Part shown: one piece after another, positions 10,599 to 63,605 of the stretch
How the letters are laid out: each line of letters starts with the position of its first letter
How positions within the stretch are numbered: the stretch's first letter is position 1
IMG/VR virus record: IMGVR_UViG_3300042887_002430
Span: 1-64,000 of that record
Reading direction: 5' to 3' (one strand)
Length of the DNA: 64,000 bases
Origin: a virus
Made by a program: the position numbers and the translations under genes
Notes under the pieces: generated by a model
What the model was told of the DNA's origin: nothing
Databases searched by the model: none
The model's input: the letters and a program-made list of their open reading frames with translations, nothing else

Positions 10599-11413
10599 AA
10601 TTTATCAAATTCCAAAAATTTGGCAAAACTTTCCGTAGCCATTCCTTGAGTTCCATTATTATTCAATAATTCCTGCATTGCTTGTGTTAATTGTTGAGAA
10701 TCATCAATAACACCTTCTTGTTTTAATAATTCTAATTTTTCATCATTGATTTTAATAGTATCATCCGTATTAGAATAATCAATAATATCTAATTCATCTA
10801 ACATATCTCTGGCGGTAGTTAGTTTTTCATCACCTAAAGATACTTTAGATGGAGTATCAATACAGCCTGCAAGGACAGCTTTAGCTAAGACTTTCTTTTG
10901 ATATTCAGATAAACTGATGGTGTGTAATTGTTGTTCTTCTGATTCGGTAATCATTTTTGATTCCTGTATATTGGTAATATGTATTTGTTTAGGGTTAAAA
11001 ACTATATATGAAAGATGTTCAATGTTATCATGTGGTGAATCTTCTGAAATAATAGCAGAATCATAACCAGCTTTAGTTAAGATGTCAATAAATAATTTCC
11101 CATCTACATCATCAAACTTTTCCCATGGTTGTTGATGATTATATAACCATCTAGTAGAACCACCATATTTTTGAAAATCATCTTCCATTTTTTCAGATAT
11201 ACCAGTAGACATATTGAACGGATGTTTTATATCTAATTCAGCTTCAATAATATATCCATTATCACCAGCATATCCTTTAGCAATATGTATATCTGGTGTA
11301 AAGAATATACCATGTCTTTTTATAATTTCTTTACCAAAAATGGTGGAATTATAACCGGTTTTGGTAATATCAAATTTTTCGAATTTTTGCGGAGTACCGT
11401 GATAGGCTTTCAT
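10586..11413 (-). CDS. ADP-ribosyltransferase-like (ART-PolyVal type) domain plus acidic C-terminal domain
   Basis: AYHGT..F..FD, GIFFTPD..IAKGYA, GYDSAI, YIVFNPKQI. Confidence 0.7.
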   Translation of the reverse strand: MKAYHGTPQKFEKFDITKTGYNSTIFGKEIIKRHGIFFTPDIHIAKGYAGDNGYIIEAELDIKHPFNMSTGISEKMEDDFQKYGGSTRWLYNHQQPWEKFDDVDGKLFIDILTKAGYDSAIISEDSPHDNIEHLSYIVFNPKQIHITNIQESKMITESEEQQLHTISLSEYQKKVLAKAVLAGCIDTPSKVSLGDEKLTTARDMLDELDIIDYSNTDDTIKINDEKLELLKQEGVIDDSQQLTQAMQELLNNNGTQGMATESFAKFLEFDKLCLD

Positions 11414-11913
11414 GATACATATGCCTGCTTATAGGTTTTAAATGGTCCTGTAATTCTCGTAATATTATTAATATTAACGATAGCTTGTGGTGCTAATTTT
11501 CCCATCCCTGATGGTACATAATCTTCAGTTTGTGGCGATTTTAAATATACTTTATATATTCCACCATGCGAATAATCTGTACCATGTTCATCTTCCATCA
11601 CAGATTGCCAATATTCTGGTTGTGATGTTGCGTAGAAACTATCTTTAGGAGCATCGGAAATATCATCATGGAAACGTTTTCCTTTTGAAAACAACTTATG
11701 ATAACTGCCTATCTTTTTCATTTGACGTTCTTTATTATAATATACATCATCATCTTCAATATATTCTAATTCATCATATAATGAATTATATAAATCTTCC
11801 ATAGCATCTAATGTAGTTTCACGAGTACCATCAAATTTTGGTAACGGAGACACATGATATAAAATATTATATTTTTCTGATTCAAACTGTTCGAACAATT
11901 CTTTTAATAACAT
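11410..11913 (-). CDS. Putative virion-internal protein, MLLKEL leader, possible ART-like fold (start reassigned to 11913)
   Basis: MLLKELFEQFESE; LYHVSP ... FYATSQPEYW ... IYKV. Confidence 0.55.
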   Translation of the reverse strand: MLLKELFEQFESEKYNILYHVSPLPKFDGTRETTLDAMEDLYNSLYDELEYIEDDDVYYNKERQMKKIGSYHKLFSKGKRFHDDISDAPKDSFYATSQPEYWQSVMEDEHGTDYSHGGIYKVYLKSPQTEDYVPSGMGKLAPQAIVNINNITRITGPFKTYKQAYVS

Positions 11914-11964
11914 ATCTATACTCATCAAATCTTCCCTACCCTTTAAGGGTAGTGAAGATTATTA

Positions 11965-12201
11965 TTAGAATGCTACTACAGATACAACGCAAGTAATTGG
12001 TGCATTGAATTCAACTGTAATAGTATTTACATCAACCGTTTTGATTGCAGCAGAAGCTGATAGTTCTTGTTTGAAATTAGTGGTACCAGTTACCGTATCA
12101 AATACCGATACTAACGGATAAGCACAATCCAAATTATGTACAACAGTGTGTTTTTTTACAGCAGTTTCACTGCTGGTATATCTAAAAGTTGTTAAAGCCA
12201 T
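11965..12201 (-). CDS. Small virion/tail-associated beta protein (HNL-motif domain)
   Basis: HTVVHNL..YPLVSVFD ..VDVNTITVEF; same module in 18700..19671; TAAATA upstream. Confidence 0.5.
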   Translation of the reverse strand: MALTTFRYTSSETAVKKHTVVHNLDCAYPLVSVFDTVTGTTNFKQELSASAAIKTVDVNTITVEFNAPITCVVSVVAF

Positions 12202-12260
12202 ATTATTATTCCTATTAAATTATAAAAACAAGTATTTATCAATATCTTATCAGCCAGTAT

Positions 12261-12848
12261 TCATATTTTACCATCAACAATTAAATGTAATTGCAATACC
12301 ACAATATGGGCATAAGCTATCGCATGAGACTTTTTGAAATCTGTCTCACTTTCCTTCATATATAAAAATTTTCTAACATGATTTCTATCTTGACAATACT
12401 TATCCAAATATTTTCTTTTACCTGGTCTAATAATAGCCATACAATCTGCTATTTCTAATATCGATTTAGGTCTTATTCTGTCTATAACTTCATAATGTTT
12501 AGATAATTGGAATAATTTTTCAACAACATATGAATGTCTTAATATCGACCAGTCTGGCTCAATTTTTAACAAATCTCTCATTTGTTGTTTATTTTCAAAT
12601 ATATCTAATACTGATAAATGTAACATATCAATTTTAAAATAATGATAATCCCCTGCTACATTATATGGAATAGCTGCCAGTTTTGTAATAGGGTCTATAG
12701 GAATATTCTGTAGATACACTCCCACGTTATGTTTCTTTATTTGATTATTGTTAATGATAGATGCATTAATACAGTTAAAATAATTTTTAGGATTAAAATG
12801 TGACGTTACGTCAATATCAATATCAGGTAATTTCATAGGATTTGACAC
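12261..12848 (-). CDS. Miniature DnaE (Pol III alpha)-like catalytic-core protein
   Basis: PDIDID, KHNVGVY, FKIDML, LFQL, AIIRPG, FKKSHAIAYA in 195 aa. Confidence 0.8.
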   Translation of the reverse strand: MSNPMKLPDIDIDVTSHFNPKNYFNCINASIINNNQIKKHNVGVYLQNIPIDPITKLAAIPYNVAGDYHYFKIDMLHLSVLDIFENKQQMRDLLKIEPDWSILRHSYVVEKLFQLSKHYEVIDRIRPKSILEIADCMAIIRPGKRKYLDKYCQDRNHVRKFLYMKESETDFKKSHAIAYAHIVVLQLHLIVDGKI

Positions 12849-13194
12849 CAGAAAAATATATCTTCTCTATACTTAAAACATTATTTTTAAATTCTTTAGT
12901 TTTTTTAATAGTTTCTATAACAGTATCACATGCTTCATCAAAATTATCAATTTTTAAATATGTACAAAAACCAGAAGTATCGTGATAGAATCCATATCCT
13001 TCACAAATACTCCCAAACATCCTCTTTAAATCATCATATTCATCTTTAGATAATTTGGTAGATGGTCTATCATTATCATCAAAATATAATAGATTATCCA
13101 GTTTAATAAGTATACCACCAATTTTTTCTAATTTAATCATCATTTTTACCATATAATTGTTGTAAAACTTCAAATAATTGCTCATCGTTAACAA
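12823..13194 (-). CDS. Hypothetical protein
   Basis: ORF in operon; likely start near 13143. Confidence 0.5.
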   Translation of the reverse strand: MLTMSNYLKFYNNYMVKMMIKLEKIGGILIKLDNLLYFDDNDRPSTKLSKDEYDDLKRMFGSICEGYGFYHDTSGFCTYLKIDNFDEACDTVIETIKKTKEFKNNVLSIEKIYFSGVKSYEIT

Positions 13195-13372: not shown

Positions 13373-13403
13373 AGCCCCCGAAGGGGGCTATGATTTATCT
13401 TAT

Positions 13404-14439: not shown

Positions 14440-14574
14440 TTGTGTATCCTATTAATTATAAAAAATATACCGAGATTCAGCATGGTTAATTATACTTTAA
14501 AATTTAATATTAAACAATAAAAATTTTAGATTTTTATTTTATGATGGGAAATATAATTCTGTGATTGACTAGAT

Positions 14575-14750
14575 ATTAGTAATAATAGATGTGGAATCGG
14601 CGGTTTAAAATAATGATTTCCTAATCCAGCACGGAAATCATTATTTTTTTTTGCTTTTACGTTTCATCACTATCTGACCCATTACCCGATACAACTAGAT
14701 AATAATCAGTTGGTACATAGCTCCACGTCAGGTCATCCCAACCTGTTTTA
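14575..14750 (-). ncRNA. TnpB omega/reRNA copy 1; predicted guide ATCTATTATTACTAAT...
   Basis: Conserved ACGTGGAG...TGAAACGT scaffold, 15-bp hairpin, end TTCCAC; substitutions between copies keep pairing. Confidence 0.75.
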
Positions 14751-15978
14751 TGTTGATTGCGGCATTCAAATCTCTATCGATTTTTAAGCCGCAGTCGCAA
14801 TTCATTGTTCGGTCAGATAACTTCATATCATGAAGCATCCCACACGAACTACACATTTTGGTACTCGGAAACCATCTATCAATAACCATAATTTCTTTCC
14901 CGTACCAATCTGCCTTATATATCAGTTGTCTTCTTAATTCAAACATCCCCACATCAGAAACAGCTTTTGATAGTTTCCGGTTCTTTACCATCCCTTTGAC
15001 ATTCAAATCTTCTATGCAGATATAATCATATTCATTCACTATCTTATGAGATAACTTATGCAAAAAATCTTTCCTACATCTTGATATCTTAGCATGAATC
15101 TTAGCTACAACAACTCTTTGTTTTTCATATCTATTTGAACCTTTGGTTTTTCGGCTCAATTCTCGTTGGGCTAACTTCAATTCCCGTTGATACTGATAAT
15201 AAAACTTTGGGGCACCAGAAAAATAACCATCACTTGTGACAACCACATCCTTAATGCCTACATCTATTCCTACTGCTTTGCCAGTTTTTGTCAATTCTTC
15301 AATCTCTTCTTCGCATGAAAAAGAAACATAATATTCACCACTAGCGGCTTTTATTAATGTGACCATTTTTGGGATTCCTTTTGGAATCCGATGCCAGTTG
15401 ACATCAATTATACCAATATTTGGCAATCTTAATAATTCACCAGCTATATAAATATTTGATATTCTGCGTTGGTCTAATTGATATCTAATTCGTTGTTCAT
15501 TCGTTTTTTTCTTATACTTGGGATATCCTGCACCCCTCTTGAAAAAATTACCATATGCCTTATCCAAATCAATTATCTTTTGTGTGATAACCGCACCAGT
15601 CGCATCATTTAACCAATTATATTTTTTCGTCTTTTTTAATTTAGTGATATATCTACTTAATCCAGCATATCCAAAAGATTCTTTGCGTCTTTCATATGCC
15701 TTAATCATCATCGATAATAAATGATTCCATACAAATCGCGCATGCCCAGACTCAACACGAAACATTTGTTTCTGCTGCTCTGTCAGTTTTGCCCTGAATT
15801 TATATGATACCATCTTTTTCATTTGACTTATTAATATCCATCGATTATAATTAAACTATATTTATTATTTATACAAAAAACAACCGCCGATGATTATTAA
15901 ATTGCCCTCGCGTCCTCTGCTCCATTTCATTTCGCAACCGTCCTGGGGGGGTCGTCGGCATCCTTGCCTCCTTCAATG
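14591..15978 (-). mobile_element. TnpB-only IS200/IS605/IS1341-like element, copy 1
   Basis: Homology with copy 2 runs from CATTGAAGGAGGC to CCGCCGATTCCAC; flanks unrelated. Confidence 0.9.
14728..15822 (-). CDS. tnpB: RNA-guided nuclease TnpB, catalytic residues intact
   Basis: GIDVG, IEDL, DRDLNAAINI; CSSCG/CDCG zinc finger. Confidence 0.95.
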   Translation of the reverse strand: MKKMVSYKFRAKLTEQQKQMFRVESGHARFVWNHLLSMMIKAYERRKESFGYAGLSRYITKLKKTKKYNWLNDATGAVITQKIIDLDKAYGNFFKRGAGYPKYKKKTNEQRIRYQLDQRRISNIYIAGELLRLPNIGIIDVNWHRIPKGIPKMVTLIKAASGEYYVSFSCEEEIEELTKTGKAVGIDVGIKDVVVTSDGYFSGAPKFYYQYQRELKLAQRELSRKTKGSNRYEKQRVVVAKIHAKISRCRKDFLHKLSHKIVNEYDYICIEDLNVKGMVKNRKLSKAVSDVGMFELRRQLIYKADWYGKEIMVIDRWFPSTKMCSSCGMLHDMKLSDRTMNCDCGLKIDRDLNAAINIKQVGMT

Positions 15979-16001
15979 TTATTTGTCAACAGGATATTCA
16001 T

Positions 16002-20167: not shown

Positions 20168-22873
20168 TTATCCGGCTGGGGGTGGGGGTGGTGCTCCTCC
20201 CGGTGCTCCTCCTGGTGCTCCTCCTGGTGCTCCTCCCATACCAGCTTCACCTCCCATACCCATATCGCCGCCCATTCCCATGTCTGGACCTGCACCCATA
20301 CCCATACCCATATCACCACCCATCATACCGCCACCCATCATACCACCATCTCCTGGTTGACCATATAATGTTTGTAATGTCTTATCAGCATTGATGGATA
20401 ATCCACGTTCTTCTTTCAACAATTGTTCATTCAACAACATATCAGCTTCTGATAATTGCAAATATCTTTGTAATACAAAACGTTTTGATAATGATTGTAA
20501 ACTATCAGCAGTACCAACCATGCTTAATAATGTATTATCAATTTCAGCTTGTTGATATTGTTTATAACTAGATGGTTTGGGTAATCTAATCTTATATAAT
20601 GCCGGGTCAATATTAATATTACAATGGAACAAGAACTGTTTAAATTCTTTATCTAAAGTATCTTCAATATATACTTGCAACCTTTCTATATATTTTGCAA
20701 ATTGTATTTCTTCAACAAATGCACTACCCATCTTACCATCATTAAACAATGCATTTTTTTCGCCGGGTTTCATATATGATAATGGTACACGTAATCCTCG
20801 TAATACTTTATCAGCAAAATAATCTAAATCAGATTGTTCCCCCAATTGAGAATTCTTTGTAAAAATACCACATGTTAATCCAAATGTATGATAATTATGA
20901 TATTTTTCATCTTGGTCGATAGTTAATGTACCAACATCCATGGTAGAATCTAATACGGTATACTCTTTAACTGTCAACCCATAAGCATGCCAACATTTAA
21001 ATACATGATTAATATCTTCATATCCTAAATGAACTGCCACATTATATAAATGTTGATATTCAATTTTATCTTTAATAACATCATTACAAATATCCATGTA
21101 TAAACATTTGAATTCATAATTATGCATAGAATTCAATACATCGATATATAATGTAGATAAGTTATCATGGTATTCAGAAGAATTATACACATCAGTCAAG
21201 ATATCCAACATATTGATATGGTCATCAGTGTAATCTATCAATATAGGATTATCAATATGATTGTAGTTATAATTAGAGATGATGTTATATAATACCTGTT
21301 TATTAAACAATCCTTTACCAATAATTTTAGTGAATTTATCATCAGAATATAATGAATCAAATACTTTATTAAATGGTAATCCTAAATTAAATAATTGTTT
21401 TACTACATCATAAACATATTCATCATATCGTTTTTTATTATCACGGATTGCATAATCTGAAGGTATTTTTGTATATTGTGTATCATCAATATCATAAAAA
21501 TCAACCACCGTTTCAATATCAATATAATTCTTTAAAACATGGTCAAATATTTGGGTATATTTGTCACCATTATTCCAATTATTTCCAATAATAACATCTC
21601 TTGATGTTAAATCACATGCCTGAACAAATCCTCTATTATGTACAGGGAATTTATGGTCAGGAGTACAAATTATTTTTTCATTATTACTCAATAATAATTC
21701 AACCACTCCTGCACTTTTATGCGTGATACCAGCCCATGATACGATACCAGGTTTTACTGTACCATTTCCAGGATTACAACTTACTACCCAATTTTCAACA
21801 CCATTTTCAAAATCAGTAATCAATTCTGATAAGGTTTTAGATTTACCAGATAATAAATCAATTTTGGTATCTAATGATAAGCAACCACTTTGAAGTACAT
21901 CTACTTTAGAACCAGCACCATCAGCACGTTGGGCAAGATATATATCCTCTAATTGTGATTGAGGATTATAAACACTATCCACACTGGCCTGCCCATTACC
22001 ATTCATAGATGGAATTTTTTTCTGTCTCATTTCATTTTTGACAGTCTCTAAATAGGCTTTGACACGATTAGGTGGCATTTTGCCTACATCAATATAGAAT
22101 ACCCTACGTTCTGGTGCTCTTTGAATTCTATAGATAATGATAGCATCTTCTAATAATTCTTTTTGTTTGTGAGTCTTATACACAGTTCTTAAAACTGATT
22201 CACCAAAAGGGGCACTATCTGACATATCATCATTAATAGAAAATACCACCATATCAGAGGCTAATACTATTTCTGTTTTAATATCTGTTACTGCTCGATA
22301 ATTAGTATTTGCAAATCCATTTGAATTAGCAGGTTCTTTAGAATTAATACGTAATTGATACCCAACAATATTGGTAATATCATGTGCATCTACCACAGCA
22401 CCAATAACATCGGCGGCTGGTACCCATTCCCATTTTTTATATGGTGATTTTTTTCTAAAAAAACAATCTCCATATTTTACAAGATTCCTACTTAATTTAA
22501 ATAATCTATTATCATTAAATCCATGTAGTTCACACCATCGGCGTAATGCTGCATTTAATGTGGTGATTAAAGTATCATCAACTTCTTGTGATTCCTCTTT
22601 AATCATATCTAAGTCTAAAGGAAGATTGGTTTTATTATTCTTACCAGTCATTTCTTCAGCAGTAATATCTAATGCTCTAGCAACCTCTACATCATTATCC
22701 ATTGCATTATATTCATTATATCGTGCTAATCTTGATGCACCACCCTGAATAACTCTATGATAAGAGGTATTACTAATAGCACCATAACTATTGTCTAATG
22801 ACTGATTGTCAGTAACCGTTACCACTGGTTGCGTAGGCGAAGCTATTTTATAAAAATCTGTAATTTTTGCCAT
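20168..22873 (-). CDS. Portal vertex protein (T4 gp20-like) with intein and Gly/Met/Pro tail
   Basis: LLEDAIIIYRIQRAPERRVFYIDVGKMP; DLDYF..KVLRGLRVP.SY; EIQFAKYIERLQ. Confidence 0.95.
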   Translation of the reverse strand: MAKITDFYKIASPTQPVVTVTDNQSLDNSYGAISNTSYHRVIQGGASRLARYNEYNAMDNDVEVARALDITAEEMTGKNNKTNLPLDLDMIKEESQEVDDTLITTLNAALRRWCELHGFNDNRLFKLSRNLVKYGDCFFRKKSPYKKWEWVPAADVIGAVVDAHDITNIVGYQLRINSKEPANSNGFANTNYRAVTDIKTEIVLASDMVVFSINDDMSDSAPFGESVLRTVYKTHKQKELLEDAIIIYRIQRAPERRVFYIDVGKMPPNRVKAYLETVKNEMRQKKIPSMNGNGQASVDSVYNPQSQLEDIYLAQRADGAGSKVDVLQSGCLSLDTKIDLLSGKSKTLSELITDFENGVENWVVSCNPGNGTVKPGIVSWAGITHKSAGVVELLLSNNEKIICTPDHKFPVHNRGFVQACDLTSRDVIIGNNWNNGDKYTQIFDHVLKNYIDIETVVDFYDIDDTQYTKIPSDYAIRDNKKRYDEYVYDVVKQLFNLGLPFNKVFDSLYSDDKFTKIIGKGLFNKQVLYNIISNYNYNHIDNPILIDYTDDHINMLDILTDVYNSSEYHDNLSTLYIDVLNSMHNYEFKCLYMDICNDVIKDKIEYQHLYNVAVHLGYEDINHVFKCWHAYGLTVKEYTVLDSTMDVGTLTIDQDEKYHNYHTFGLTCGIFTKNSQLGEQSDLDYFADKVLRGLRVPLSYMKPGEKNALFNDGKMGSAFVEEIQFAKYIERLQVYIEDTLDKEFKQFLFHCNINIDPALYKIRLPKPSSYKQYQQAEIDNTLLSMVGTADSLQSLSKRFVLQRYLQLSEADMLLNEQLLKEERGLSINADKTLQTLYGQPGDGGMMGGGMMGGDMGMGMGAGPDMGMGGDMGMGGEAGMGGAPGGAPGGAPGGAPPPPPAG
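20852..21883 (-). mobile_element. Intein in portal (344 aa)
   Basis: SG|CLSLDTKI...CTPDHKF...VGTLTID..YHTFGLTCGIFTKN|S. Confidence 0.88.
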
Positions 22874-24399: not shown

Positions 24400-25236
24400 T
24401 TATTTTTTATCAGTAATCTCCTCTTTAGAAATATTGTCAGATGTTAATAAATCATCAAAATCGGCAGTGGTAATGTCTGGTTTTTCTATTTTAGGTTGAG
24501 GACTAGTAGATAATTTGCCATGTAAATTACTAGGAACCCCTGTTTTACTAATATTCCCTAATTTAGTGTAAGCATAAAAATCTATGGTCGGGAACTTCTT
24601 GGCAATCCTTACTGCCATATCCATATACGATTCACTAAAATAGTCACCAACATCGTGCCACCGTAATGCCACGTTTGTACTCTGTTTATTGGCTATATTT
24701 AGTTTATTATGCAATTCTTTTACAATTTTATGTTCAAAACCATGAGGGTCATTTACCAAAAAATTAATCTTATTTGATAATGGTATAAACACTTGTGGGA
24801 ATTGTATATGACCATCCTGTTTAACATAACAATATGTTCTACATTTACCAGTACTAGCACAGGTATTAACAATAACCAATTCATCTGTTTTTTCATTAAC
24901 AATCAATCCAGTCATTGCCGGTAGACCAACATCAAATAATGTTGCACCAATAGTCTTAGAAACTTTAGAATTATGTTTTAGTAATTGTTTTGGTCTAACC
25001 TTCAACAAATGTTTAAGAGTAGAATAGTCATAATCTTCATCAAATTCATTTTTTATAATTATATTATCCGATAAATCTTCCATATCAGTAGGGATATCAT
25101 CCAATGCATTATCTTCAACCGGCACAATAGATTCATATAATTTTGCATGTACAAATTGTGACAAGCTCATTATTTTATAACCATGTAACGTATCATGACG
25201 TACTGGTTCTTGGTTAAATAATTCTGATAATAACAT
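24400..25236 (-). CDS. GP88-like Cys-motif protein with MLLSEL leader
   Basis: CASTGKCRTYCY, RWHDVGD, FYAYTK; late promoter 25268-25275. Confidence 0.65.
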   Translation of the reverse strand: MLLSELFNQEPVRHDTLHGYKIMSLSQFVHAKLYESIVPVEDNALDDIPTDMEDLSDNIIIKNEFDEDYDYSTLKHLLKVRPKQLLKHNSKVSKTIGATLFDVGLPAMTGLIVNEKTDELVIVNTCASTGKCRTYCYVKQDGHIQFPQVFIPLSNKINFLVNDPHGFEHKIVKELHNKLNIANKQSTNVALRWHDVGDYFSESYMDMAVRIAKKFPTIDFYAYTKLGNISKTGVPSNLHGKLSTSPQPKIEKPDITTADFDDLLTSDNISKEEITDKK

Positions 25237-25270
25237 AATATTCCTTTAAATATTGTTTAGGATTATATAT

Positions 25271-25501
25271 TTATACCAAATACTGATAATTATGACGAGA
25301 CATAGATGCAACATAATTACAGTCATTAATCATCCATGGTACATTAAGTGTTACATCACTATTAATTCTACGAATAACATCTTCACATTGCTTAATTTCT
25401 TCTACTTGTAACTTTAATATGGTTGCATTATATAAAGCATCCTGTAAGGCATAATTAGCAGCCATTATATTATTGGTGGTAATAATCATAATAATTCCCA
25501 A
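25271..25501 (-). CDS. Hypothetical protein
   Basis: ORF. Confidence 0.45.
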   Translation of the reverse strand: MGIIMIITTNNIMAANYALQDALYNATILKLQVEEIKQCEDVIRRINSDVTLNVPWMINDCNYVASMSRHNYQYLV

Positions 25502-27202: not shown

Positions 27203-28588
27203 CATTGAAGGAGGCATGGATGCCGACGACCCCCAGGACGGTTGTGAAATGAAATGGAGCAGAGGACGCGAGGGCAATTTAATAATCATCGGCGGTTGTT
27301 TTTTGTATAAATAATAAATATAGTTTAATTATAAACAATGGATATTAATAAGTCAAATGAAAAAGATGGTATCATATAAATTAAGGGCATATCTGACAGA
27401 GCAGCAGGAACAAATGTTTCGTGTTGAGTCTGGTCATGCGCGATTTGTATGGAATCATTTATTATCGATGATGATTAAGGCATATGAAAGACGCAAAGAA
27501 TCTTTTGGATATGCTGGATTAAGTAGATATATCACTAAATTAAAAAAGACGAAAAAATATAATTGGTTAAATGATGCGACTGGTGCGGTTATCACACAAA
27601 AGATAATTGATTTGGATAAGGCATATGGTAATTTTTTCAAGAGGGGTGCAGGATATCCCAAGTATAAAAAGAAAACGAGTGAACAAAGAATTAGATATCA
27701 GTTAGACCAACGCATTATTGGAAAATATTTTATAGCTGGTGAATTATTAAGATTGACCAATATTGGTGTGATTGATGTGAAATGGCATCGGATTCCTAAA
27801 GGAATTCCTAAGATGGTGACATTAATAAAAGCCGCTAGTGGTGAATATTATGTTTCATTTTCATGTGAAGAAGAGATTGAAGAATTGCCAAAAACTGGCA
27901 AAGTAGTAGGAATAGATGTAGGCATTAAAGATGTAGTTGTCACAAGTGATGGTTATTTTTCTGGTGCCCCGAAGTTTTATTATCAATATCAGCGGGAATT
28001 GAAATTAGCCCAACGAGAATTGAGCCGAAAAACCAAAGGTTCAAATGGATATGAAAAACAAAGAGTTGTTGTAGCTAAGATTCATGCTAAGATAGCAAGA
28101 TGTAGAAAAGATTTTTTGCATAAGTTATCTCATAAGATAGTAAATGAATATGATTATATCTGCATAGAAGATTTGAATGTGAAAGGGATGGTAAAGAACC
28201 GAAAACTTTCAAAAGCTGTTTCTGATGTAGGTATGTATGAGCTAAAAAGACAACTGATATATAAGGCAGATTGGTACGCGAAAGAAATTAGAATAATTGA
28301 CAGATGGTTTCCGAGTACCAAAATGTGCAGTTCGTGTGGGATGCTTCATGATATGAAGTTATCTGACCGGACAATGAATTGCGATTGTGGCTTCTCTATG
28401 GATAGAGATTTAAATGCCGCAATTAATATAAAACAGGCCGGGATGGTCTGACGCGGAGCTATGTATCAACTGATTATTATCTAGCTGCATCGGATAATGG
28501 GTCAGATAGCGATGAAACGTAAAAGCAAAAAAAAATAATGATTTCCGTGCTGGATTAGGAAATCATTATTTTAAACCGCCGATTCCAC
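27203..28588 (+). mobile_element. TnpB-only element, copy 2 (inverted relative to copy 1)
   Basis: Same ends as copy 1. Confidence 0.9.
27357..28451 (+). CDS. tnpB: RNA-guided nuclease TnpB, catalytic residues intact
   Basis: D/E/D RuvC motifs; about 26 of 364 aa differ from copy 1 (manual count). Confidence 0.95.
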   Translation: MKKMVSYKLRAYLTEQQEQMFRVESGHARFVWNHLLSMMIKAYERRKESFGYAGLSRYITKLKKTKKYNWLNDATGAVITQKIIDLDKAYGNFFKRGAGYPKYKKKTSEQRIRYQLDQRIIGKYFIAGELLRLTNIGVIDVKWHRIPKGIPKMVTLIKAASGEYYVSFSCEEEIEELPKTGKVVGIDVGIKDVVVTSDGYFSGAPKFYYQYQRELKLAQRELSRKTKGSNGYEKQRVVVAKIHAKIARCRKDFLHKLSHKIVNEYDYICIEDLNVKGMVKNRKLSKAVSDVGMYELKRQLIYKADWYAKEIRIIDRWFPSTKMCSSCGMLHDMKLSDRTMNCDCGFSMDRDLNAAINIKQAGMV

Positions 28589-28846: not shown

Positions 28847-29977
28847 TCATAACAACCTATTGATTGTTAAGAGATTATTAATATTTGTTAACTGTTTGGA
28901 AACATTTAATTTCTCATTATCAAATACTGGTTGTTTATACCTGTTACACTTATCTTCAAACGTTTCAGCCTTGCTTTTTAAGGCTTCTATACGGTCATAA
29001 TGGTCAATAGATAAGGGTACTATTTTATCAATAGTTTCATCCAACCATTTAACAAATTCTAATTTATCATCATTACGTGGTATAAATGATAAAACTACAC
29101 TATCAGTAATAGTAGTTATCTGTACAATGGTATAATAATTACCAAACACCATATTAAATTTATCATATATTTCATTTTCAGAATATGATAAATGATATGG
29201 ATTATTTTTTACATCGTGAAGTCGGAAAAATGTTTCATTATCTTTTGGTAATATATAACATTCACTATAAAGATACTCATTAACACCTAAGATATTGTAA
29301 ATATGCTGTTTAGTTATCTTAGGAACATGACCATCATAAAAGGCTTTCTTACGGTTAATAATAATATTTAGATTAGCATCATTATCAGCAAATATCTTAA
29401 TATAATAACCATTCTTGGCTACTATCTTACGCATCTTAACCTTTAATTCTTCAATATATCCAGCAACATCTATTTCAAAAAATTCTGGTCTAACATTGAA
29501 GATATATCTATCACCATTGTTGCACACTTTATGTACTACACTATTATAATAAACTTTAGGTATCCCTATCATAGATTCTAAAGTACCTATTGAGTAAATA
29601 GATGGTCCTGATGGGTTAGGTTTTTTTACTTTTGCTCTTCTAAAAGCATTAATAACATAACTAACCTTAAACAGTGAATTGTGTTGGGTAATTTCTACTT
29701 TTGGATGATGTTTAACTTCCATCAATACAAAATTATAAATTCTGGAATGCTTAGACATTCTTTTTAATTTTTTATTAATGATTTCTGACGGAATCATTAA
29801 AGTAGTAATGACAGTCATATTAATACCTTTATGTGTCATTCCATTGTCTGTAGCTATTTCTACGATTTTATCAACATCATATAAGGTATTTAACAATTTA
29901 TATAAACTAATATTTCCTAGCTTATATTGGTCTAATTCATACATATTCATATTGTTACTCCCAATCCCATTCAACAT
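28847..29977 (-). CDS. Hypothetical protein
   Basis: Long ORF. Confidence 0.6.
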   Translation of the reverse strand: MLNGIGSNNMNMYELDQYKLGNISLYKLLNTLYDVDKIVEIATDNGMTHKGINMTVITTLMIPSEIINKKLKRMSKHSRIYNFVLMEVKHHPKVEITQHNSLFKVSYVINAFRRAKVKKPNPSGPSIYSIGTLESMIGIPKVYYNSVVHKVCNNGDRYIFNVRPEFFEIDVAGYIEELKVKMRKIVAKNGYYIKIFADNDANLNIIINRKKAFYDGHVPKITKQHIYNILGVNEYLYSECYILPKDNETFFRLHDVKNNPYHLSYSENEIYDKFNMVFGNYYTIVQITTITDSVVLSFIPRNDDKLEFVKWLDETIDKIVPLSIDHYDRIEALKSKAETFEDKCNRYKQPVFDNEKLNVSKQLTNINNLLTINRLL

Positions 29978-43911: not shown

Positions 43912-44154
43912 ATGAAAAAAATATTAATATTAGTAAGCATCCTTTTATTATCTGGGTGTGCTGATAAAAATCCTAATCCTGATGAGGTATTAGGATTTTG
44001 GTACGGTATGTGGCATGGTTTTACTATTATTTTAGCATTTTTGGCATCATGGTTTGATAATGATGTTGCTTTATATGCTACTAATAATACGGGATTCTGG
44101 TACAATTTAGGATATTTGTGTGGATTATATATCTTTTATGATACTACCAATTAA
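43912..44154 (+). CDS. Lipoprotein/membrane protein
   Basis: Lipobox LSGC; GFWYGMWHG. Confidence 0.7.
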   Translation: MKKILILVSILLLSGCADKNPNPDEVLGFWYGMWHGFTIILAFLASWFDNDVALYATNNTGFWYNLGYLCGLYIFYDTTN

Positions 44155-44561
44155 TGTTTATTAATACCTTTCCAGTACCCTAGCTTATTATCAAATACCA
44201 ATTCTTCTGGTGCATAGAATTCACCCTCTGCACCAGTCACTTCTAAATCTCTAGGGTCTACAATAATCTTCATTATTGTATTATTCTTTCCAAATTTTGG
44301 TTCAGAATGTTGTTTAGTAGATTTATCTGTTGGACCAAACCATGCACCCTTATTAAATCTTCCTAATAATTTAATATTTTCTGCATTATCTTTGGATGTT
44401 CCATGATATACAATAATAGTAGCATCACCAACTTTCTTTTCAACTTTTGAACCACGTTGTTTAGCTTCTTTAACAAAATCTTCCATAGCATTATATCGTT
44501 CAATATAATCTTGACGGTAATTGAAATTCTCTTTTAATGGTTTAATTTCTGATAGTTTCAT
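44151..44561 (-). CDS. MKLSEI-leader protein, ADP-ribosyltransferase-like
   Basis: VYHGTS..NAENI...GAWF; GEF. Confidence 0.55.
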   Translation of the reverse strand: MKLSEIKPLKENFNYRQDYIERYNAMEDFVKEAKQRGSKVEKKVGDATIIVYHGTSKDNAENIKLLGRFNKGAWFGPTDKSTKQHSEPKFGKNNTIMKIIVDPRDLEVTGAEGEFYAPEELVFDNKLGYWKGINKH

Positions 44562-44563
44562 AA

Positions 44564-45400
44564 TTATCTAAATTTTGATTGGGTTAATCTAATATTACCA
44601 TCTTTATCTACATATGCATGGGCATACATTTTATCTGCACCGTGTTTATAAAAATCTACTGTAGTGGCATCTAATCCATAATCCCATAAGTATAAACGAT
44701 TATTAAACTTGCACCAATTTCTAGCGGTTGTTAAATCACCAATAGTCAATCCCGCATTTTGCATCAATTCTGTTAAGTATAAAAAATTTTCATTCTGTTC
44801 GTCATCCTGTTTACCTGCACGATATACTGTAGATGCTGCATCATGTAAATAATCTACTATATTACGAAATCGTCCACGATAATATAAATCTGCATTGGTA
44901 AATTCATTAAAAATATCACCAAACTCTTCTTTGAACATTTTTTTAAATTCACCAGGCTTGATAGGTTCAGCAAGTGGCATTTGTATCCAGTTAGATAATG
45001 AAATATTATCAAAATGAATATCTTTATTTCTTGCACTAGTATCTAAAATAGGCAATAAAAATCTACCACTTTCCCAATGGGAATAATTATAAAAATGTTC
45101 AATCTCTGCACGATTTTGAGCAATACCTTTACCATTTAATGCTAATTTAAATACGGTTTGTACCATACCCGATGTTGGTAAATTATATTCCGATAATACA
45201 TGATGGTCTAACATGGATGCATCTATAGCTACTTTAAAAACAATTCTCGATGACCCTTTACCAACCCGTTCACCAAATTCTTCAAATTTTTTAATAATAG
45301 CCACAGATGAATATTTTCCTGCCCGACTATCTAATGAACGTGCCTCAATTTCGGGAGGTAATGGAGCTTCAAATAATGGTAATACTTCTTTTAGTTTCAT
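44564..45400 (-). CDS. MKLKEV-leader protein kinase-like enzyme
   Basis: GKGSSRIVF, VFKLA, QNRAE, GDL...NW, DYG. Confidence 0.75.
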   Translation of the reverse strand: MKLKEVLPLFEAPLPPEIEARSLDSRAGKYSSVAIIKKFEEFGERVGKGSSRIVFKVAIDASMLDHHVLSEYNLPTSGMVQTVFKLALNGKGIAQNRAEIEHFYNYSHWESGRFLLPILDTSARNKDIHFDNISLSNWIQMPLAEPIKPGEFKKMFKEEFGDIFNEFTNADLYYRGRFRNIVDYLHDAASTVYRAGKQDDEQNENFLYLTELMQNAGLTIGDLTTARNWCKFNNRLYLWDYGLDATTVDFYKHGADKMYAHAYVDKDGNIRLTQSKFR

Positions 45401-45402
45401 AC

Positions 45403-46239
45403 TTATGCCTTATATCGTTTTAGTGTAGGTGATAATTTCAATGTTATATTACCATCCTTATCCACCTTAGCAGTTGCCTTTTTAAATTTATTATATAGTT
45501 CATGGGTAGTAACATCAAAACCATAATCTAACAAATATAATCTATTGTTAAATAATCCCCAACTACTATTCTTAAAAATATCCCCAAACCCTAATTTCAC
45601 GGTATCAATCATATCCATTAATGTATGAAAATTATGAGCTTGTAATCCTGTTGCTACACCATTCTTAACAGCATTATCTCTAATCTCTTTCAATGCATCA
45701 TGTAATTCCGCACGAGTTTTTATTTTAATATTAGATAAATCATCAAAGACCATACCAAATTCTGCTTCAAATATTCCTTTAAATTCCAATGGTTTAATTC
45801 TTTTTACCATTGGTAATTGTATCCAATGTGACAATGGTTCATCATCTAAGGTAATATTCTTAGTTCTTGCACTAGTATCTAATATAGGTAAGATATACCT
45901 TGCAAAATCATGAGATTTATATTTTTTAAATGTATTGATTTCTGCTTTATTCTGTGCAATACCATTAGCATTAGTAGCTACTTTAAAAACAGTATCTATT
46001 TTTCCAGATGTTGGGAAACCATAATGTGATAATATAGAAGTATCTAATAATTCTGCATCAATACTAACACTAAATGCTGCTCTTGACGAACCTTGACCTA
46101 CCTTAACTCCACCAATTTTTGTAAATCTATACATTAAACTAGGTGAGGAATATGCACCAGGTTTAGGTTCTAAATATGATGGGTCAACATCTGGCGGTAA
46201 TGGTGCTTCCAATAATGGTTTTAATTCTTGTAATTTCAT
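45403..46239 (-). CDS. MKLQEL-leader protein kinase-like enzyme (paralog)
   Basis: GQGSSRAAF, VFKVA, QNKAE, GDI..SSWG, DYGF. Confidence 0.75.
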   Translation of the reverse strand: MKLQELKPLLEAPLPPDVDPSYLEPKPGAYSSPSLMYRFTKIGGVKVGQGSSRAAFSVSIDAELLDTSILSHYGFPTSGKIDTVFKVATNANGIAQNKAEINTFKKYKSHDFARYILPILDTSARTKNITLDDEPLSHWIQLPMVKRIKPLEFKGIFEAEFGMVFDDLSNIKIKTRAELHDALKEIRDNAVKNGVATGLQAHNFHTLMDMIDTVKLGFGDIFKNSSWGLFNNRLYLLDYGFDVTTHELYNKFKKATAKVDKDGNITLKLSPTLKRYKA

Positions 46240-46604
46240 GATATGCCATTCTTAAAAATGTTATTTAAGTAATTAGAATCCATATTTAAACCATTGTGTA
46301 TTAATACATTACCTACAAACGTAGAACAATTTTCAGCATTAACGTTATTTACTGATGGTACTAATACTGGTTTAGATAGATTTATAATTTTTAATTGTTG
46401 TGGTGGGAAATTAGAATCTTCGGTAATGCTATTAGTAATATAAACCCCATCACCATGTTTATGTCCAGACATTTGTAATTGTTTACCACTATCAATAATA
46501 AATCCAACATGGTCATAATACCACAATTTCGGACATGAAGTAGAACGTGCAAAAAATATTGAATTAGATTTATATTCTTTAGACAATAATTCTCTTAATA
46601 GCAT
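46236..46604 (-). CDS. MLLREL-leader protein, permuted papain-like fold
   Basis: DHVGF ... ENCSTFV (His before Asn-Cys). Confidence 0.55.
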   Translation of the reverse strand: MLLRELLSKEYKSNSIFFARSTSCPKLWYYDHVGFIIDSGKQLQMSGHKHGDGVYITNSITEDSNFPPQQLKIINLSKPVLVPSVNNVNAENCSTFVGNVLIHNGLNMDSNYLNNIFKNGIS

Positions 46605-46605: not shown

Positions 46606-47115
46606 TTAATCCCATCTCAATATTCTTAATTGTGTTAATTTATCAGCCAATGCTATTAAATGTTTGCATCCACCTAATGATTTGTTAGGATTAACCGGTG
46701 GTCTATTAGTCTTTTTAATATATGGAGGGGGAGGAGTTCCTTCTAAACTATTGTTGTTAAAGTGAAATGTTGCAAATCTATAATAAAAATCTAAACAATC
46801 ACAGGATAAATGAATATCATTATGTCTAGCATTCAATGGAATAATATTATGAATTTCATTATCATCACATTTAATAGCTATGCCACCATCATCTACATAC
46901 TGAACATCATCAAATTGAATATCAGTTTTATAATGTTGACCACCACTACTCTGTGTATCTGCCTCAACCTTTAAATTATTGGTTTGGGTATATGGAGTGA
47001 ATTTAAGACCACGTGCATTAACAGTATTTGTAATATGCTGACGTTTCTTAGTTGTTGGGAAACCAGTAATATTATTCTGGTTAACTTGGCTGACGGTAAT
47101 CTCTGATAATAGCAT
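46606..47115 (-). CDS. MLLSEI-leader SWIM zinc-finger protein
   Basis: CDCLDFYYRF...GCKHL; late promoter 47145-47152. Confidence 0.7.
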   Translation of the reverse strand: MLLSEITVSQVNQNNITGFPTTKKRQHITNTVNARGLKFTPYTQTNNLKVEADTQSSGGQHYKTDIQFDDVQYVDDGGIAIKCDDNEIHNIIPLNARHNDIHLSCDCLDFYYRFATFHFNNNSLEGTPPPPYIKKTNRPPVNPNKSLGGCKHLIALADKLTQLRILRWD

Positions 47116-47207
47116 AAAAATTCTTATATGATTTTTAAATCTACTATTTATAAAAATACCCTCCTAATGATTGATTTTTAATCATTAGGAGGGTATAAAA
47201 GAATATC

Positions 47208-47531
47208 TTAGTGTGTCAGGTGACTTACATGTGCTAAATGACCTGATGGATGTTCTTCTGCATTATCACCATGTTTAATAACAATAGAATCATAATCATC
47301 CATCGTTAATTTTTCAGAATGTAATTTCAATGCATTCTCGGTAATTTTATGCAAATCCATATCAGATGCTGCTTCTTCTTTAGCATATTCTAATAATCTA
47401 ATAAACAATGGAATATCCAATGTTAATGTGTCTTCAGGATTTCCAGGAACATCACCATGTGATGGTGGCATATCATGTCGGGTATCAGCACCATCCATTT
47501 CAAAGGATGATAAAACTTCACATAATTTCAT
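47208..47531 (-). CDS. MKLCEV-leader hypothetical protein
   Basis: DIPLFIRLLEYAKE..DMDLH; TAAATA upstream. Confidence 0.6.
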   Translation of the reverse strand: MKLCEVLSSFEMDGADTRHDMPPSHGDVPGNPEDTLTLDIPLFIRLLEYAKEEAASDMDLHKITENALKLHSEKLTMDDYDSIVIKHGDNAEEHPSGHLAHVSHLTH

Positions 47532-47572: not shown

Positions 47573-48028
47573 TTATTTAGCAATACTGGGATTAATGTCA
47601 AATGTTTTAGGGTGTAAATCCTCACTACGCCCCGTATAATTTCTAGGATTCATCAATACATTACTATTTAATAATCGTTCAACCGCCTTTCTAGTATCTG
47701 AAGATTGTATATTAATAGTAATAGTTCTAATACCATGAATATATAATTCTCTAATTAAATCTTTAAAGAATCCTCGTCTTTTAAATTTATATTCATCAGC
47801 AGAATATTTAAATTCGGATGGTACACTATTCATACCAATGATTCTAGCATTATCATCAACTATTTCGCCATAGGCTTTACCACCAATAATATCAGAATAT
47901 TTAAAACCAGTATAGGAAACATCTTTAACAACATCATCTCCAATGTCATCATCATATTCTTTTACCTTTTTAGTTTCTTTAGCTACAATAAATGATTCAT
48001 CCAATGATTTAATTTCTAATAATTTCAT
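47573..48028 (-). CDS. MKLLEI-leader protein, possible GNAT fold
   Basis: FKRRGFFKDLI resembles the acetyl-CoA binding motif. Confidence 0.45.
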   Translation of the reverse strand: MKLLEIKSLDESFIVAKETKKVKEYDDDIGDDVVKDVSYTGFKYSDIIGGKAYGEIVDDNARIIGMNSVPSEFKYSADEYKFKRRGFFKDLIRELYIHGIRTITINIQSSDTRKAVERLLNSNVLMNPRNYTGRSEDLHPKTFDINPSIAK

Positions 48029-59921: not shown

Positions 59922-59930
59922 GGTTTCAAT

Positions 59931-60586: not shown

Positions 60587-61559
60587 TACTACCCATCATA
60601 TTCTAATATTTGATATGTCTAATATGTTGTATAAGACATTTTATGTTAACAGTAAAGAAACGGATGAAACCACTTTAATACAGTTAGCATTTACTTCTAG
60701 CTTTGCAACATTAAACAAATATTACAAATTATATAAACCATCCAAAGTCATCTTTGCATTTGATAGGACTAATTGGAGGGCATCATATACACAATCTGCA
60801 GAATGTTATTCTAAAAAATTGTATAAGGGGCATAGACGACAATCTATGACACCTACACAACAACAGATGTATTTGATTTTTAAACAGTTTATTACAGAAT
60901 TTGAAAATGTTATTAGAGCCTGTACAGCTATAACATGTTTATCTGCTGATGGTTTAGAAGCTGATGATATTATTGCTGGTGTCTGTAGGATATATGGTGG
61001 TGAAGATACCGCTCCTGATAATGGATGTACATTTCATGATGTAATAGATGACCATAGTGTCACCATTGTCAGTGCCGATAAAGATTTACTACAGTTATTA
61101 AGATATAAGACTGTAGAATTGATTGACCCTGCCACTGGCAGAAATAGAACCGTTGAAAATACTGGTTTTGAATCGGTGGATTATTATCTTTATGAAAAGT
61201 ATATGACTGGTGATGCTGGTGATAATGTTGCCTCTGCATATCCTAGATATCGTAAGGCAAAGATTAAAGCTGCCTATAATGATGAATATTTGCATAATAA
61301 TTTAATGCAAACTGAATGGACCGATATTGAAGAACGAGTGATAGTGGTTGGTGAAATGGTTAAAGAAAACAAACTATTAACCAATTTAACACACCAACCA
61401 CATGACATTCAGGATAAATTATGGAACACCATTTTAGAAGGATGTAATGCTAAAAAACGTTATGACCATTTCAAATTTTTACAATTCTTGGGAAAATATG
61501 ATTTGGTTATGGTAAGTAAGTATATAGATTCCTATATGCCTATGTTATCATTACGATGA
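60576..61559 (+). CDS. rnh: T4-type RNase H / 5'-3' exonuclease
   Basis: FDMSN, YKGHR, EADDIIA, SADKDLLQL, GDAGDNV. Confidence 0.92.
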   Translation: MKNDTTHHILIFDMSNMLYKTFYVNSKETDETTLIQLAFTSSFATLNKYYKLYKPSKVIFAFDRTNWRASYTQSAECYSKKLYKGHRRQSMTPTQQQMYLIFKQFITEFENVIRACTAITCLSADGLEADDIIAGVCRIYGGEDTAPDNGCTFHDVIDDHSVTIVSADKDLLQLLRYKTVELIDPATGRNRTVENTGFESVDYYLYEKYMTGDAGDNVASAYPRYRKAKIKAAYNDEYLHNNLMQTEWTDIEERVIVVGEMVKENKLLTNLTHQPHDIQDKLWNTILEGCNAKKRYDHFKFLQFLGKYDLVMVSKYIDSYMPMLSLR

Positions 61560-61895
61560 TTTAGCTCCTAACCACGTTGGTGGTGTTAATCCACGGTTTG
61601 TTGGAGTATCATCACCATTGGTTGTAGAATCAATAGTGTACCCCGTTGTTAGCCCTACATAAATTAAAGTCACCATTGACATATCAGCCGTTACTAGATT
61701 ATTAGATAATGCACCAAATATTGCTATTGCGGCGGTGGATAATGATGATATTGTTCCAAAAAAATTAATGGTTCCAAACCATTGATATATTGTGACTTGA
61801 GTTTCTGACCGTACTTTCTTTTTGGCATAATGCCCAATCATACCTAAAAGAGTTGATAACAAAAATATTAATTGATAAGTTGATATGAATTCCAT
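61551..61895 (-). CDS. Holin-like membrane protein
   Basis: Three hydrophobic segments; late promoter at 61920-61927. Confidence 0.55.
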   Translation of the reverse strand: MEFISTYQLIFLLSTLLGMIGHYAKKKVRSETQVTIYQWFGTINFFGTISSLSTAAIAIFGALSNNLVTADMSMVTLIYVGLTTGYTIDSTTNGDDTPTNRGLTPPTWLGAKSS

Positions 61896-62079
61896 CGATT
61901 ATACTCCTTCAAATGTGTATATTTATATAATACTATAAAAAATCATAGACCCGGTAATTGTCAATATAATCAATAAGTTGAAAAAATTACAATAAAATTA
62001 ATAATTTTTATCATGTTCACTTTTTTACATAATAAATATCGCCATAACAAATAGTTATTAATTTTTTTAGGAGTTTTTT

Positions 62080-62499
62080 ATGTCGCAACAAGGTTATAAA
62101 TTTATTGAATGGATGGATTTGGATGGTAGTGGTCTGTTAACAGAAGTAGCTATCATGAAACGATTTCCATCTGGTGATGTTGTATTTTTTAAAGTAAATG
62201 ATTTAGATGTTATTGATAAGCAAAGATTACGAAATATCATTACTAATCGTAATTCTTCATTATATGATGAATTGTGGAAATTATGTGAAATTACTACATT
62301 AGGTAATGGTGTCAATGCTTTATCATTCTTTTCACAATTAGCACAAGTTAGACATCATAATGGTCAGATTTCACCGTTTAATTCTGGTAAAATTTCAGCA
62401 CCTCGCCAAGCAGCACCAGTTAATTTTTCAGAACCAACACCTGATGAAGTAGCACCCAGTTTTGACCAAGTAGCCAAACCAGCAGCAAAAACTAAGTAA
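62080..62499 (+). CDS. Hypothetical phage protein
   Basis: AGGAG RBS; TLGNGVNAL. Confidence 0.65.
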   Translation: MSQQGYKFIEWMDLDGSGLLTEVAIMKRFPSGDVVFFKVNDLDVIDKQRLRNIITNRNSSLYDELWKLCEITTLGNGVNALSFFSQLAQVRHHNGQISPFNSGKISAPRQAAPVNFSEPTPDEVAPSFDQVAKPAAKTK

Positions 62500-62563
62500 A
62501 ATTATCGTCAAACATTCATAAATACAGTAATTGATGGATTAACTTTGTACAAAGGAGTGTACT

Positions 62564-62830
62564 ATGTTTGATGAAGTTAATGATGATGGCGATATTGCAT
62601 CTATGTTTGAAGAACGTGACAGGGAAAGAGCCTTACACCAGGTGTTAGGTAACATTCCCCAAAAACGAGATATAGATGCATTGCTGGAAGATGGAAAACT
62701 TTGTGAATGGTGTGACGATATTATACCTATGGAGAGACAACGAATCGTGTTGACATTATTGAAATCATGTGATTATTGTGTTGAATGTCAAGCACTTATG
62801 GAAAAACAAGATTTATTATATTGGGGTTAA
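62564..62830 (+). CDS. TraR/DksA C4 zinc-finger protein
   Basis: DDGDIA acidic tip; CEWC..IP.ERQ..CVECQ. Confidence 0.85.
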   Translation: MFDEVNDDGDIASMFEERDRERALHQVLGNIPQKRDIDALLEDGKLCEWCDDIIPMERQRIVLTLLKSCDYCVECQALMEKQDLLYWG

Positions 62831-63294
62831 CCAGTTATATGAGTTGTAAACATTGTGGTAATTATTTAATCAACCTTTCAGCAAAATGCTATGATAATTT
62901 TTCATTATCATATGATGACCCTAGATTGGTTGATTATAATAATTTAGGGTTTAAATATGATGGCAAAACATTAGAAGTATCTTATTGTTTACACTGTGGC
63001 AAAGTAGATGGTGATTTTCCAGTAGTTATTAAAGAATTGGAAAGAATCGAATCTCCGGCAGTGTACATTGGTGAAATGATTAAAAAATTCTATGACTATG
63101 TTATGATAGGAGATACTAAACATGCTGATGGTATTATGAGGCAGTTAAGTGTCAGGATGTCCCCTACTGACGTATCCACATTAATCGAATTATGGGCAAA
63201 TTACGAAAGTATCAAAAACGTATATCCACAATATCCAGAATTTGATGAATGTGTTAAAGAGTTTATTGGACGTTATAACAAATACTTATTTTAA
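62785..63294 (+). CDS. Zn-ribbon hypothetical protein
   Basis: CKHC ... YCLHCG. Confidence 0.55.
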   Translation: MSSTYGKTRFIILGLTSYMSCKHCGNYLINLSAKCYDNFSLSYDDPRLVDYNNLGFKYDGKTLEVSYCLHCGKVDGDFPVVIKELERIESPAVYIGEMIKKFYDYVMIGDTKHADGIMRQLSVRMSPTDVSTLIELWANYESIKNVYPQYPEFDECVKEFIGRYNKYLF

Positions 63295-63302
63295 GGTATT
63301 AT

Positions 63303-63605
63303 ATGCTATTAAAAGAAATTGTAAATGGTTTAGATTATGAACATAATGAATTAATCAAAAAAACCATTAGAAAATACGTAAATGACCCACATGTTACTAT
63401 TGATAGTGCGGTAGGGTTAGTAAAAAAAGTCTATGCTGAATTAGGTATAGAAATCCCAAAGTTTGGTGATTCTGCAAAATATAATGATTATGAGGATATT
63501 AATATTTTTGCAGTGAAAGAATTACAGAAATCTACCGAGAAAGGTGTTCGGGATGATAGTTGGAAAATCACTAAAGATGATAGTCCGTTTAATAAAGATG
63601 TTTAA
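63303..63605 (+). CDS. MLLKEI-leader hypothetical protein
   Basis: Shared leader motif. Confidence 0.6.
   Translation: MLLKEIVNGLDYEHNELIKKTIRKYVNDPHVTIDSAVGLVKKVYAELGIEIPKFGDSAKYNDYEDINIFAVKELQKSTEKGVRDDSWKITKDDSPFNKDV

Follow-up and report, generated by a model that had tools for sequence, protein, structure and literature searches.

A short N-terminal leader on unrelated proteins of a T4-related jumbo phage resembles the capsid-targeting propeptides of T4

Why would proteins with nothing else in common begin with the same half dozen residues? The question is raised by a 64,000-nucleotide stretch of viral DNA (the window), which is the first 64 kb of the 92,482-nucleotide IMG/VR virus record IMGVR_UViG_3300042887_002430. 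In this window ten proteins carry an N-terminal leader of the form M-[KL]-L-x-E-[ILV]. An initial annotation had read the leader as an address tag of the kind used by bacteriophage T4, in which a short capsid targeting sequence (CTS) directs internal proteins into the head and is removed by the prohead protease gp21, and had proposed that the tag delivers an arsenal of enzymes with the DNA. The record has a G+C content of 30%, and its estimated completeness of ~26% (CheckV) implies a genome of roughly 350 kb. Its portal protein (901 amino acids [aa], 20168 to 22873 on the minus strand) is of the T4 gp20 type (phrog_213), which places the phage among the T4-related jumbo phages; the best matches among cultured phages are XacN1 and Xoo-sp13, at ~46% identity, followed by PA5oct. 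No near-identical DNA was found among cultured phages.

All ten leaders translate exactly as they had been given. Across the six frames of the whole record, M[KL]L.E[ILV] matched 14 times, and 12 of these matches head open reading frames (ORFs) of 100 to 391 aa, two of them additional members that lie beyond the window, one at record position 90188 (391 aa) and the other at 91360 (running off the end, with at least 374 aa). Position-specific N-terminal composition predicts 0.03 matches in 113 genes, and in 50 third-order Markov simulations the motif turned up 0.54 times on average at any place and never at the head of an ORF of at least 100 aa. With 12 observed and ~0.03 to 0.5 expected, the N-terminal enrichment holds across the record, and an origin of the leader in chance or composition was rejected. 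Loosening the pattern yielded just one extra candidate (MNMYEL at 29950), showing that the motif is sharply defined. Outside the leader, BLASTP linked only the proteins beginning at 45400 and 46239 (44% identity), such that the members are indeed unrelated save for this kinase-like pair, and paralogy was rejected as the source of the shared leader. The core L3-x-E5 is conserved in all 12 members and is usually followed by [ILV]6, and the MKL form usually adds P8-L9-x-E11. A second Glu had been noted near residues 8 to 11, and a PLxE, SLDE, SFE or FE unit ending there was found in 8 of the 12. The tagged proteins make up ~11% of the genes of the fragment; the leader is not found on the portal protein, baseplate hub, polymerase, ribonucleotide reductase (RNR), ThyA, helicase, SbcCD or NAMPT.

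The constancy of the leader lies in its amino acids. Among seven kinase-like homologues (40 to 97% identity), M1, L3, E5, L9, E11 and the P-L-P that follows are invariant. Five orthologues of the protein beginning at 44561 (84 to 89% identity) have a constant leader save at position 4 (S, T, I or F) and position 10 (K, L or F), which are exactly the free x of L-x-E. In G002, a relative identified by a 61% portal match, the orthologues of the proteins beginning at 47115, 63303 and 90188 retain M-x-L-x-E-[IL] with neighboring residues or the whole linker altered. Codon use varies within the leaders (TTA, CTA or TTG for Leu; GAA or GAG for Glu). The sparing of Leu and Glu while the x codons and the synonymous codons vary argues against a purely nucleotide-level signal. 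At 46239, the window has MKLQELKPLLEA where a 97%-identical orthologue (P0001) has MLLKELKPLLEE, a difference of 3 substitutions in 12 residues in which K2L alone takes at least two base changes. This comparison suggests that leaders are swapped or that the free positions evolve very fast.

The constant residues match a known protease site. T4 gp21 recognizes the motif (L/I)-x-E and cuts after the Glu (PMC9026906, PMC5694885), and the leader carries this motif as one or two L-x-E units with Glu at P1. Comparable N-termini occur in the T4 record on Alt (MELITELFDE), gp68 (MLLIPE), gp22 (MLKEQLIAE), gp24 (MAKINELLRE) and gp67 (MEGLIE), and the first six residues of Alt are removed at ITE-6 (PMC5694885). 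By eye, MLLKELFEQFE, MLLSELFNQE and MKLFELFEAL are nearest the Alt propeptide, the peptides being too short for statistical alignment, and the tag is therefore better called Alt-like or core-protein-like than a copy of the internal-protein CTS. As in Alt, an ADP-ribosyltransferase (MELITE/LFDE, where the slash marks the cut, as in the junctions below), the tag is very short and begins at Met1, and its hydrophobic-x-Glu cut motif runs on into L-F-x-E; MLLKELFE, MLLSELFN and MKLFELFE align to Alt with a one-residue shift. The bearer of the tag in T4 is an injected enzyme that is packaged in the head. Unlike the Alt tag, which T4 has on one protein and an alt.-1 remnant, the leader heads no fewer than 12 unrelated proteins here, within one quarter of a genome; it has K or L in place of E at position 2, and many members add a second P-L-x-E site.

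The leader also has features in common with the CTS borne by the internal proteins of T4, namely, IPI, IPII and IPIII. This CTS is an N-terminal address of ~10 residues common to otherwise unrelated, fast-evolving proteins; it has two Glu residues at a spacing of ~4 to 6 residues and is cut off behind the second of them. Mullaney and Black reportedly described this CTS as MKTYQEFIAE in 1996. Aromatic residues at CTS positions 4 and 7 matter for targeting in T4, whereas the leader is without an aromatic residue at either position. IPII and IPIII start with MKTYQEFIAE, a defined CTS (PMC8442874), and in T-even phages it is established that diverse internal proteins share only a conserved CTS (PMC3012670, PMC9026906). 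The tagged proteins differ from T4 CTS cargo in being mostly larger and not uniformly basic, and in accounting for about a ninth of the genes of the fragment, compared with three internal proteins in T4.

We compared the N-termini of relatives by unbiased clustering and found equivalents of the leader in phages that encode a gp21-like protease (Peptidase_S77), namely, G001, Alishewanella phage Slicko01 and XacN1. Ten unrelated proteins of G001, a complete 222-kb phage, begin with MKTFKEFLxE-like sequences, near the T4 CTS. The complete genome of Slicko01 has ten unrelated proteins that begin with MKIDxLYESxLxE, eight of them in one array, and XacN1 has scattered similar N-termini (for example, MRFVQYLIE and LSQFLSE). 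The wording of the respective phage is also found on homologues of the kinase-like cargo, at a conserved junction, which reads PLLE/APLP in the window, TLLE/APLP in Slicko01, FLSE/APLP in XacN1 and LLE/MAFP in G001; ~60 further metagenome loci of this cargo include the forms MKTFKQYLNE/MPLP and MKTLESYIAE. Head proteins share the local wording. In Slicko01 it is found on the scaffold (MKEDLKQLFESVVLNE) and on a core protein (…KMITES…), and in G001 the capsid and core proteins carry it as well. In head modules of the XacN1 clade, the protease begins MKLLVEEL and the capsid protein begins MNELFENW, and small genes adjoining the capsid gene begin MKLYEI, MKLFEV or MKLFEI, in the wording that the window itself uses; over 986 kb of XacN1-clade head loci, 18 of 32 distinct motif matches were N-terminal. 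A search of IMG/VR with the leader as a DNA pattern gave no matches.

Other short N-terminal families were seen in these relatives. In G002 (L060-L066), a plus-strand gene at 69497 to 70219 encodes a protein that begins MATFTEFLIES, a CTS of the T4 internal-protein type, beside M-x-L-x-E-L tags, indicating that one lineage can use two wordings at once; a gp23-like tblastn match in this relative (66274 to 67347) covers the C-terminal half only. Two XacN1-like capsid contigs with a G+C content of 0.31 (L213/L211, 4359 to 8445) hold eight small genes beginning MIN[LV][YF]x[YL][YH]T between the head protease and scaffold genes, together with a gene beginning MMITFKQYLHE (T4-CTS-like) and one beginning MLLSEIF. 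A conserved ~110-aa protein encoded a few genes downstream of the capsid gene in XacN1-clade head modules (L158, L177, L196, L198, L203 and L213) always begins with the CTS-like ...[ST]FK[QE]YLDSK... and may be a head-internal protein conserved in this clade. In PA5oct, whose records mark the proteins detected by mass spectrometry, no clear CTS-like family was found. The ends of that genome (NC_071039; L220, L233-L234) encode ~19 small proteins (71 to 190 aa, most of <115 aa) that begin MD[LF]IL.LQ..., a family unrelated to the logic of the CTS, whose members are probably paralogous early genes.

We consider it fairly likely that the leader represents a variant, specific to this lineage, of the T4-type capsid-targeting, protease-cut propeptide, of which the CTS of IPI to IPIII and the six-residue propeptide of Alt are the known forms, and that the tagged proteins are probably carried inside the virus particle. 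What would be new relative to T4 is the other wording and the much larger scale of a known head-targeting, gp21-processed propeptide, which is the best explanation of the pattern. During assembly of the prohead core, the hydrophobic-x-Glu repeats (L3-x-E5 and usually L9-x-E11) would let the tagged protein dock on the scaffold core. Cleavage after Glu by a gp21-like prohead protease would follow, most likely at E11 where it is present and otherwise at E5 or E8 to E10. The mature cargo would remain in the head with the DNA and would probably be ejected into the next host, as are T4 Alt and the internal proteins. The T4-like reading of the initial annotation is supported by the gp21 motif, the likeness to T4 N-termini, the constancy of Leu and Glu and the tags of relatives, while its claims about late expression and cargo hold only in part.

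A wider proposition, about which we are more doubtful, is that T4-related jumbo phages have a general, evolvable hydrophobic-x-Glu address of 5 to 11 residues, the wording of which drifts with the N-termini of the scaffold, capsid and protease, and which loads about one in ten genes' products as injected enzymes. If so, several dozen proteins of this phage (kinase-like, GP88 and possibly ART- or papain-like) would be trimmed and injected before phage gene expression, and no natural capsid-targeting signal known would be shorter than the Alt-like M-x-L-x-E. We found no description in the literature of large tag families in jumbo T4-related phages.

The members had been said to lie mostly behind late boxes, that is, TATAAATA or TAAATA. 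Exact TATAAATA occurs 20 times and in 13 cases lies 20 to 58 nucleotides (nt) ahead of a start on the same strand, positioning which indicates that T4-type late promoters are in use. An exact box directly precedes only 2 of the 12 leader genes (25236 and 47115, genes being named here by the position of the start codon), compared with 11 of 94 others; TAAATA precedes 6 of the 12 and 35 of the 94, and leader genes have relaxed boxes ahead of them no more often than other genes do. The claim is therefore weak. On the minus strand, an intrinsic terminator with a 17-bp stem (47196 to 47156) is followed by an exact TATAAATA at 47152 to 47145 (together 47145 to 47196), and the two head a five-gene leader operon running from 47115 to 44151 (first gene 47115, last gene 44561). 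With 25236, which has its own exact TATAAATA at 25268 to 25275, this operon puts 6 of the 12 members behind exact late boxes. About half of the leader set is thus plausibly late expressed, as judged from these signals.

Several observations weigh against a T4-type head-targeting role for the leader. Expression timing is mixed: gene 47531 lies behind a strong sigma70-like promoter (TTGACA-18-AATAAT, 47601 to 47572) as well as a CTAAATA box, and genes 11913 and 63303 sit among early-type genes. Gene 11913 also has an in-frame ATG four codons upstream (11925) with better Shine-Dalgarno spacing, so that its leader may not be strictly N-terminal. The conserved positions of the tag number only five, and its wording is unlike the canonical CTS MKTYQEFIAE. 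The pI of the cargo ranges from 4.8 to 9.2, whereas the T4 internal proteins are uniformly basic. Neither the text nor the gene table of the XacN1 paper, a study that used excised gel bands, counts the kinase-like homologue ORF170 among the virion proteins. Finally, the 92-kb fragment, which represents ~26% of the genome, has no protease, scaffold or capsid gene (PF03420, the gp21 protease family, and PF07068, the gp23 capsid family, were both without a match), which precludes comparing the tag with the head proteins of its own phage; protease and capsid genes were likewise not found in five portal-related fragments.

Of the rival explanations, the strongest accepts that the tag targets the prohead core and is cut there and holds that the proteins are not an injected kit but assembly or core components, which, as with T4 gp67, gp68 and gp22, would be degraded or expelled in the course of maturation or would be active only in the producing cell. 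The T4 N-termini nearest to the MLL form, those of gp68 (MLLIPE) and gp22 (MLKEQLIAE), belong to degraded core proteins (PMC9026906), and the small acidic products of genes 47531 (pI 4.8), 11913 (pI 5.0) and 63303 (pI 5.4) fit an acidic core better than they fit DNA-embedded internal proteins, so that for such small acidic members this fate is possible. We nevertheless judge it unlikely for the set, since cargo of 278 to 391 aa with enzyme-like features (a kinase-like signature, GP88) would be improbable scaffold material, since the orthologues are non-core and patchy in the manner of T-even internal proteins, and since the most similar T4 tag is that of Alt, an injected enzyme.

A role for the leader outside the capsid, as the recognition sequence of some other machine (a modifying enzyme, a different protease, a chaperone or an export system), has in its favor the position of the main array, which comes after SbcCD and RuvC with no head gene adjoining; we regard it as improbable, because the gp21 site is identical to the motif, which also occurs on the head proteins of relatives. 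A radical-SAM recognition leader was rejected, as there is no radical-SAM gene in this record, Slicko01 or G002; the one radical-SAM match in G001 is weak, falls below the threshold and lies far from the tagged genes of that phage. Conservation at the nucleotide level, as a translation-initiation or downstream-box element or as a recombination cassette that shuffles gene starts, is less probable still: although an AAA second codon and A/T-rich early codons favor initiation, several members lack a clear Shine-Dalgarno sequence, and MLLKEL replaces MKLQEL between 97%-identical orthologues with several base changes within 12 nt, as if swapped, the variation is codon-wise and spares L and E exactly, Leu and Glu codons differ, and the versions of relatives differ in DNA yet retain the hydrophobic-x-Glu logic.

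Two other known systems bear comparison with a capsid-targeting leader. In the phiKZ-like giants (SPN3US, phiKZ), a prohead protease related to that of T4 processes many head-internal ejection proteins, cutting after Glu (PMC5694885, PMC10052503). Unlike the leader, their propeptides are mostly of >100 residues and are cut at A/S/G-x-E, with a small residue at P3 in place of Leu, and these phages lie outside the T4-core group to which the portal studied here belongs. Polyvalent proteins contain similar domain types, for which delivery together with the DNA has been proposed (Iyer et al. 2017, PMC5512222). The likeness lies in the domain types (ART-PolyVal, kinase-like and papain-like), and an ART-PolyVal gene is present in the window; unlike polyvalent proteins, the members are separate small genes, each with its own tag, and not one giant multidomain protein, and the ART-PolyVal gene is untagged.

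What the tagged proteins do was assessed gene by gene, and the functions suggested in the initial annotation fared unevenly. The GP88 assignment stands: gene 25236 (24400 to 25236, minus strand; 278 aa, MLLSELFNQE...) encodes a GP88 domain (PF17338) at residues 107 to 247, the sole Pfam match among the members. Its tblastn matches among cultured phages were five records, labeled "hypothetical protein" or unannotated, and its orthologue in L050 retains MLLSELF; baseplate-hub and portal genes lie 1.5 kb downstream. A kinase-like fold is moderately supported for the adjacent 278-aa paralogues of genes 45400 (44564 to 45400, minus strand; MKLKEVLPLFE/APLPP...) and 46239 (45403 to 46239, minus strand; MKLQELKPLLE/APLPP...). 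AF2 modeling for this pair (44564 to 46239) gave a mean pLDDT of 63.5; the top Foldseek matches are all APH or kinase folds, though weak (E of at least 0.014), VIA found kinase domains at Z scores of 4.4 to 6.1 over ~120 residues, and comparison with Bud32 gave an E value of 0.012. Invariant residues of the family are G48, G50, S51, K86, E100, D121 and D238-Y-G.

The remaining suggestions found less in their favor. The protein of gene 44561 (44151 to 44561, minus strand; 136 aa, MKLSEIKPLKE/N..., basic pI of 8.9), proposed to be ART-like, has a YHGT motif and no Pfam or other family match, and its AF2 model, with a pLDDT of 36, is too poor for use; a homologue is fused behind an ART-PolyVal fragment. 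The true ART-PolyVal gene of the window (PF18760; 10586 to 11413, minus strand; 275 aa; E = 2.2e-15, 58 bits with a cutoff of 31.2) has no leader and is context rather than a member, and PF18760 and related models of polyvalent-protein domains had no match in any of the 12 tagged proteins. The product of gene 48028 (47573 to 48028, minus strand; 151 aa, MKLLEIKSLDE/S...) had been called GNAT-like, for which the searches run gave no support. For gene 47115 (46606 to 47115, minus strand; 169 aa, MLLSEITV...), the SWIM-like pattern CxC...CxH is visible by eye without a SWIM family match; its orthologue adjoins the portal gene in relatives G002 and G003. The permuted papain proposed for gene 46604 (46236 to 46604, minus strand; 122 aa, MLLRELLSKE...) retains a weak language-model lead to permuted papain-like amidases (Peptidase_C92) and nothing further. 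Searches of PDB sequences with the kinase-like profile, 48028 and 91360 returned nothing below an E value of 0.06. An anti-defense role for the cargo would be pure inference.

Three further members complete the set in the window. Gene 47531 (47208 to 47531, minus strand; MKLCEVLSSFE/M...) encodes 107 aa of very acidic character. Gene 11913 (11410 to 11913, minus strand; MLLKELFEQFE...) encodes an acidic protein of 167 aa with no family match, and its stop codon overlaps the start of the ART-PolyVal gene, which lies directly 3' of it. Gene 63303 (63303 to 63605, plus strand; 100 aa, MLLKEIVNGLDYE...) lies in a plus-strand block 3' of the DNA polymerase gene, and its G002 orthologue begins MLLQELMGNP.

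The record also encodes RNR, ThyA/DHFR-type genes, a family B DNA polymerase, SbcCD, helicases and NAD-salvage enzymes. The NAD-salvage genes (NAMPT at 7798 to 9117 and an adjoining gene at 9117 to 10088, all on the minus strand) lie directly 3' of the ART-PolyVal gene and tagged gene 11913; this neighborhood could tie NAD supply to ADP-ribosylation or to counter-defense against NAD depletion. The portal protein is of 901 aa, compared with 524 aa in T4, and T4 residues 254 to 350 and 357 to 508 align ~1,050 nt apart, implying an insertion of ~350 aa in mid-portal (an intein or an extra domain). Two 364-aa ORFs, at 14728 to 15822 (minus strand) and 27357 to 28451 (plus strand), begin MKKMVSYK, and each lies 44 nt 3' of an exact TATAAATA late box.

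The proteins that T4 injects from its head are enriched in host-takeover and counter-defense functions, as exemplified by Alt and IPI. If the leader works as its counterparts do in T4, the tag alone would predict which proteins of uncultured jumbo phages are borne in the particle and become active during the opening seconds of infection, a class of proteins that is invisible to ordinary annotation. A textbook mechanism known from three or four T4 proteins would then grow to cover a sizeable share of jumbo-phage genes. It would supply a simple sequence rule for injected effectors and short natural tags for loading foreign proteins into heads, and the lineage-specific wordings that tagged proteins have in common with the head proteins of their own phage would make the coevolution of tag and scaffold testable.

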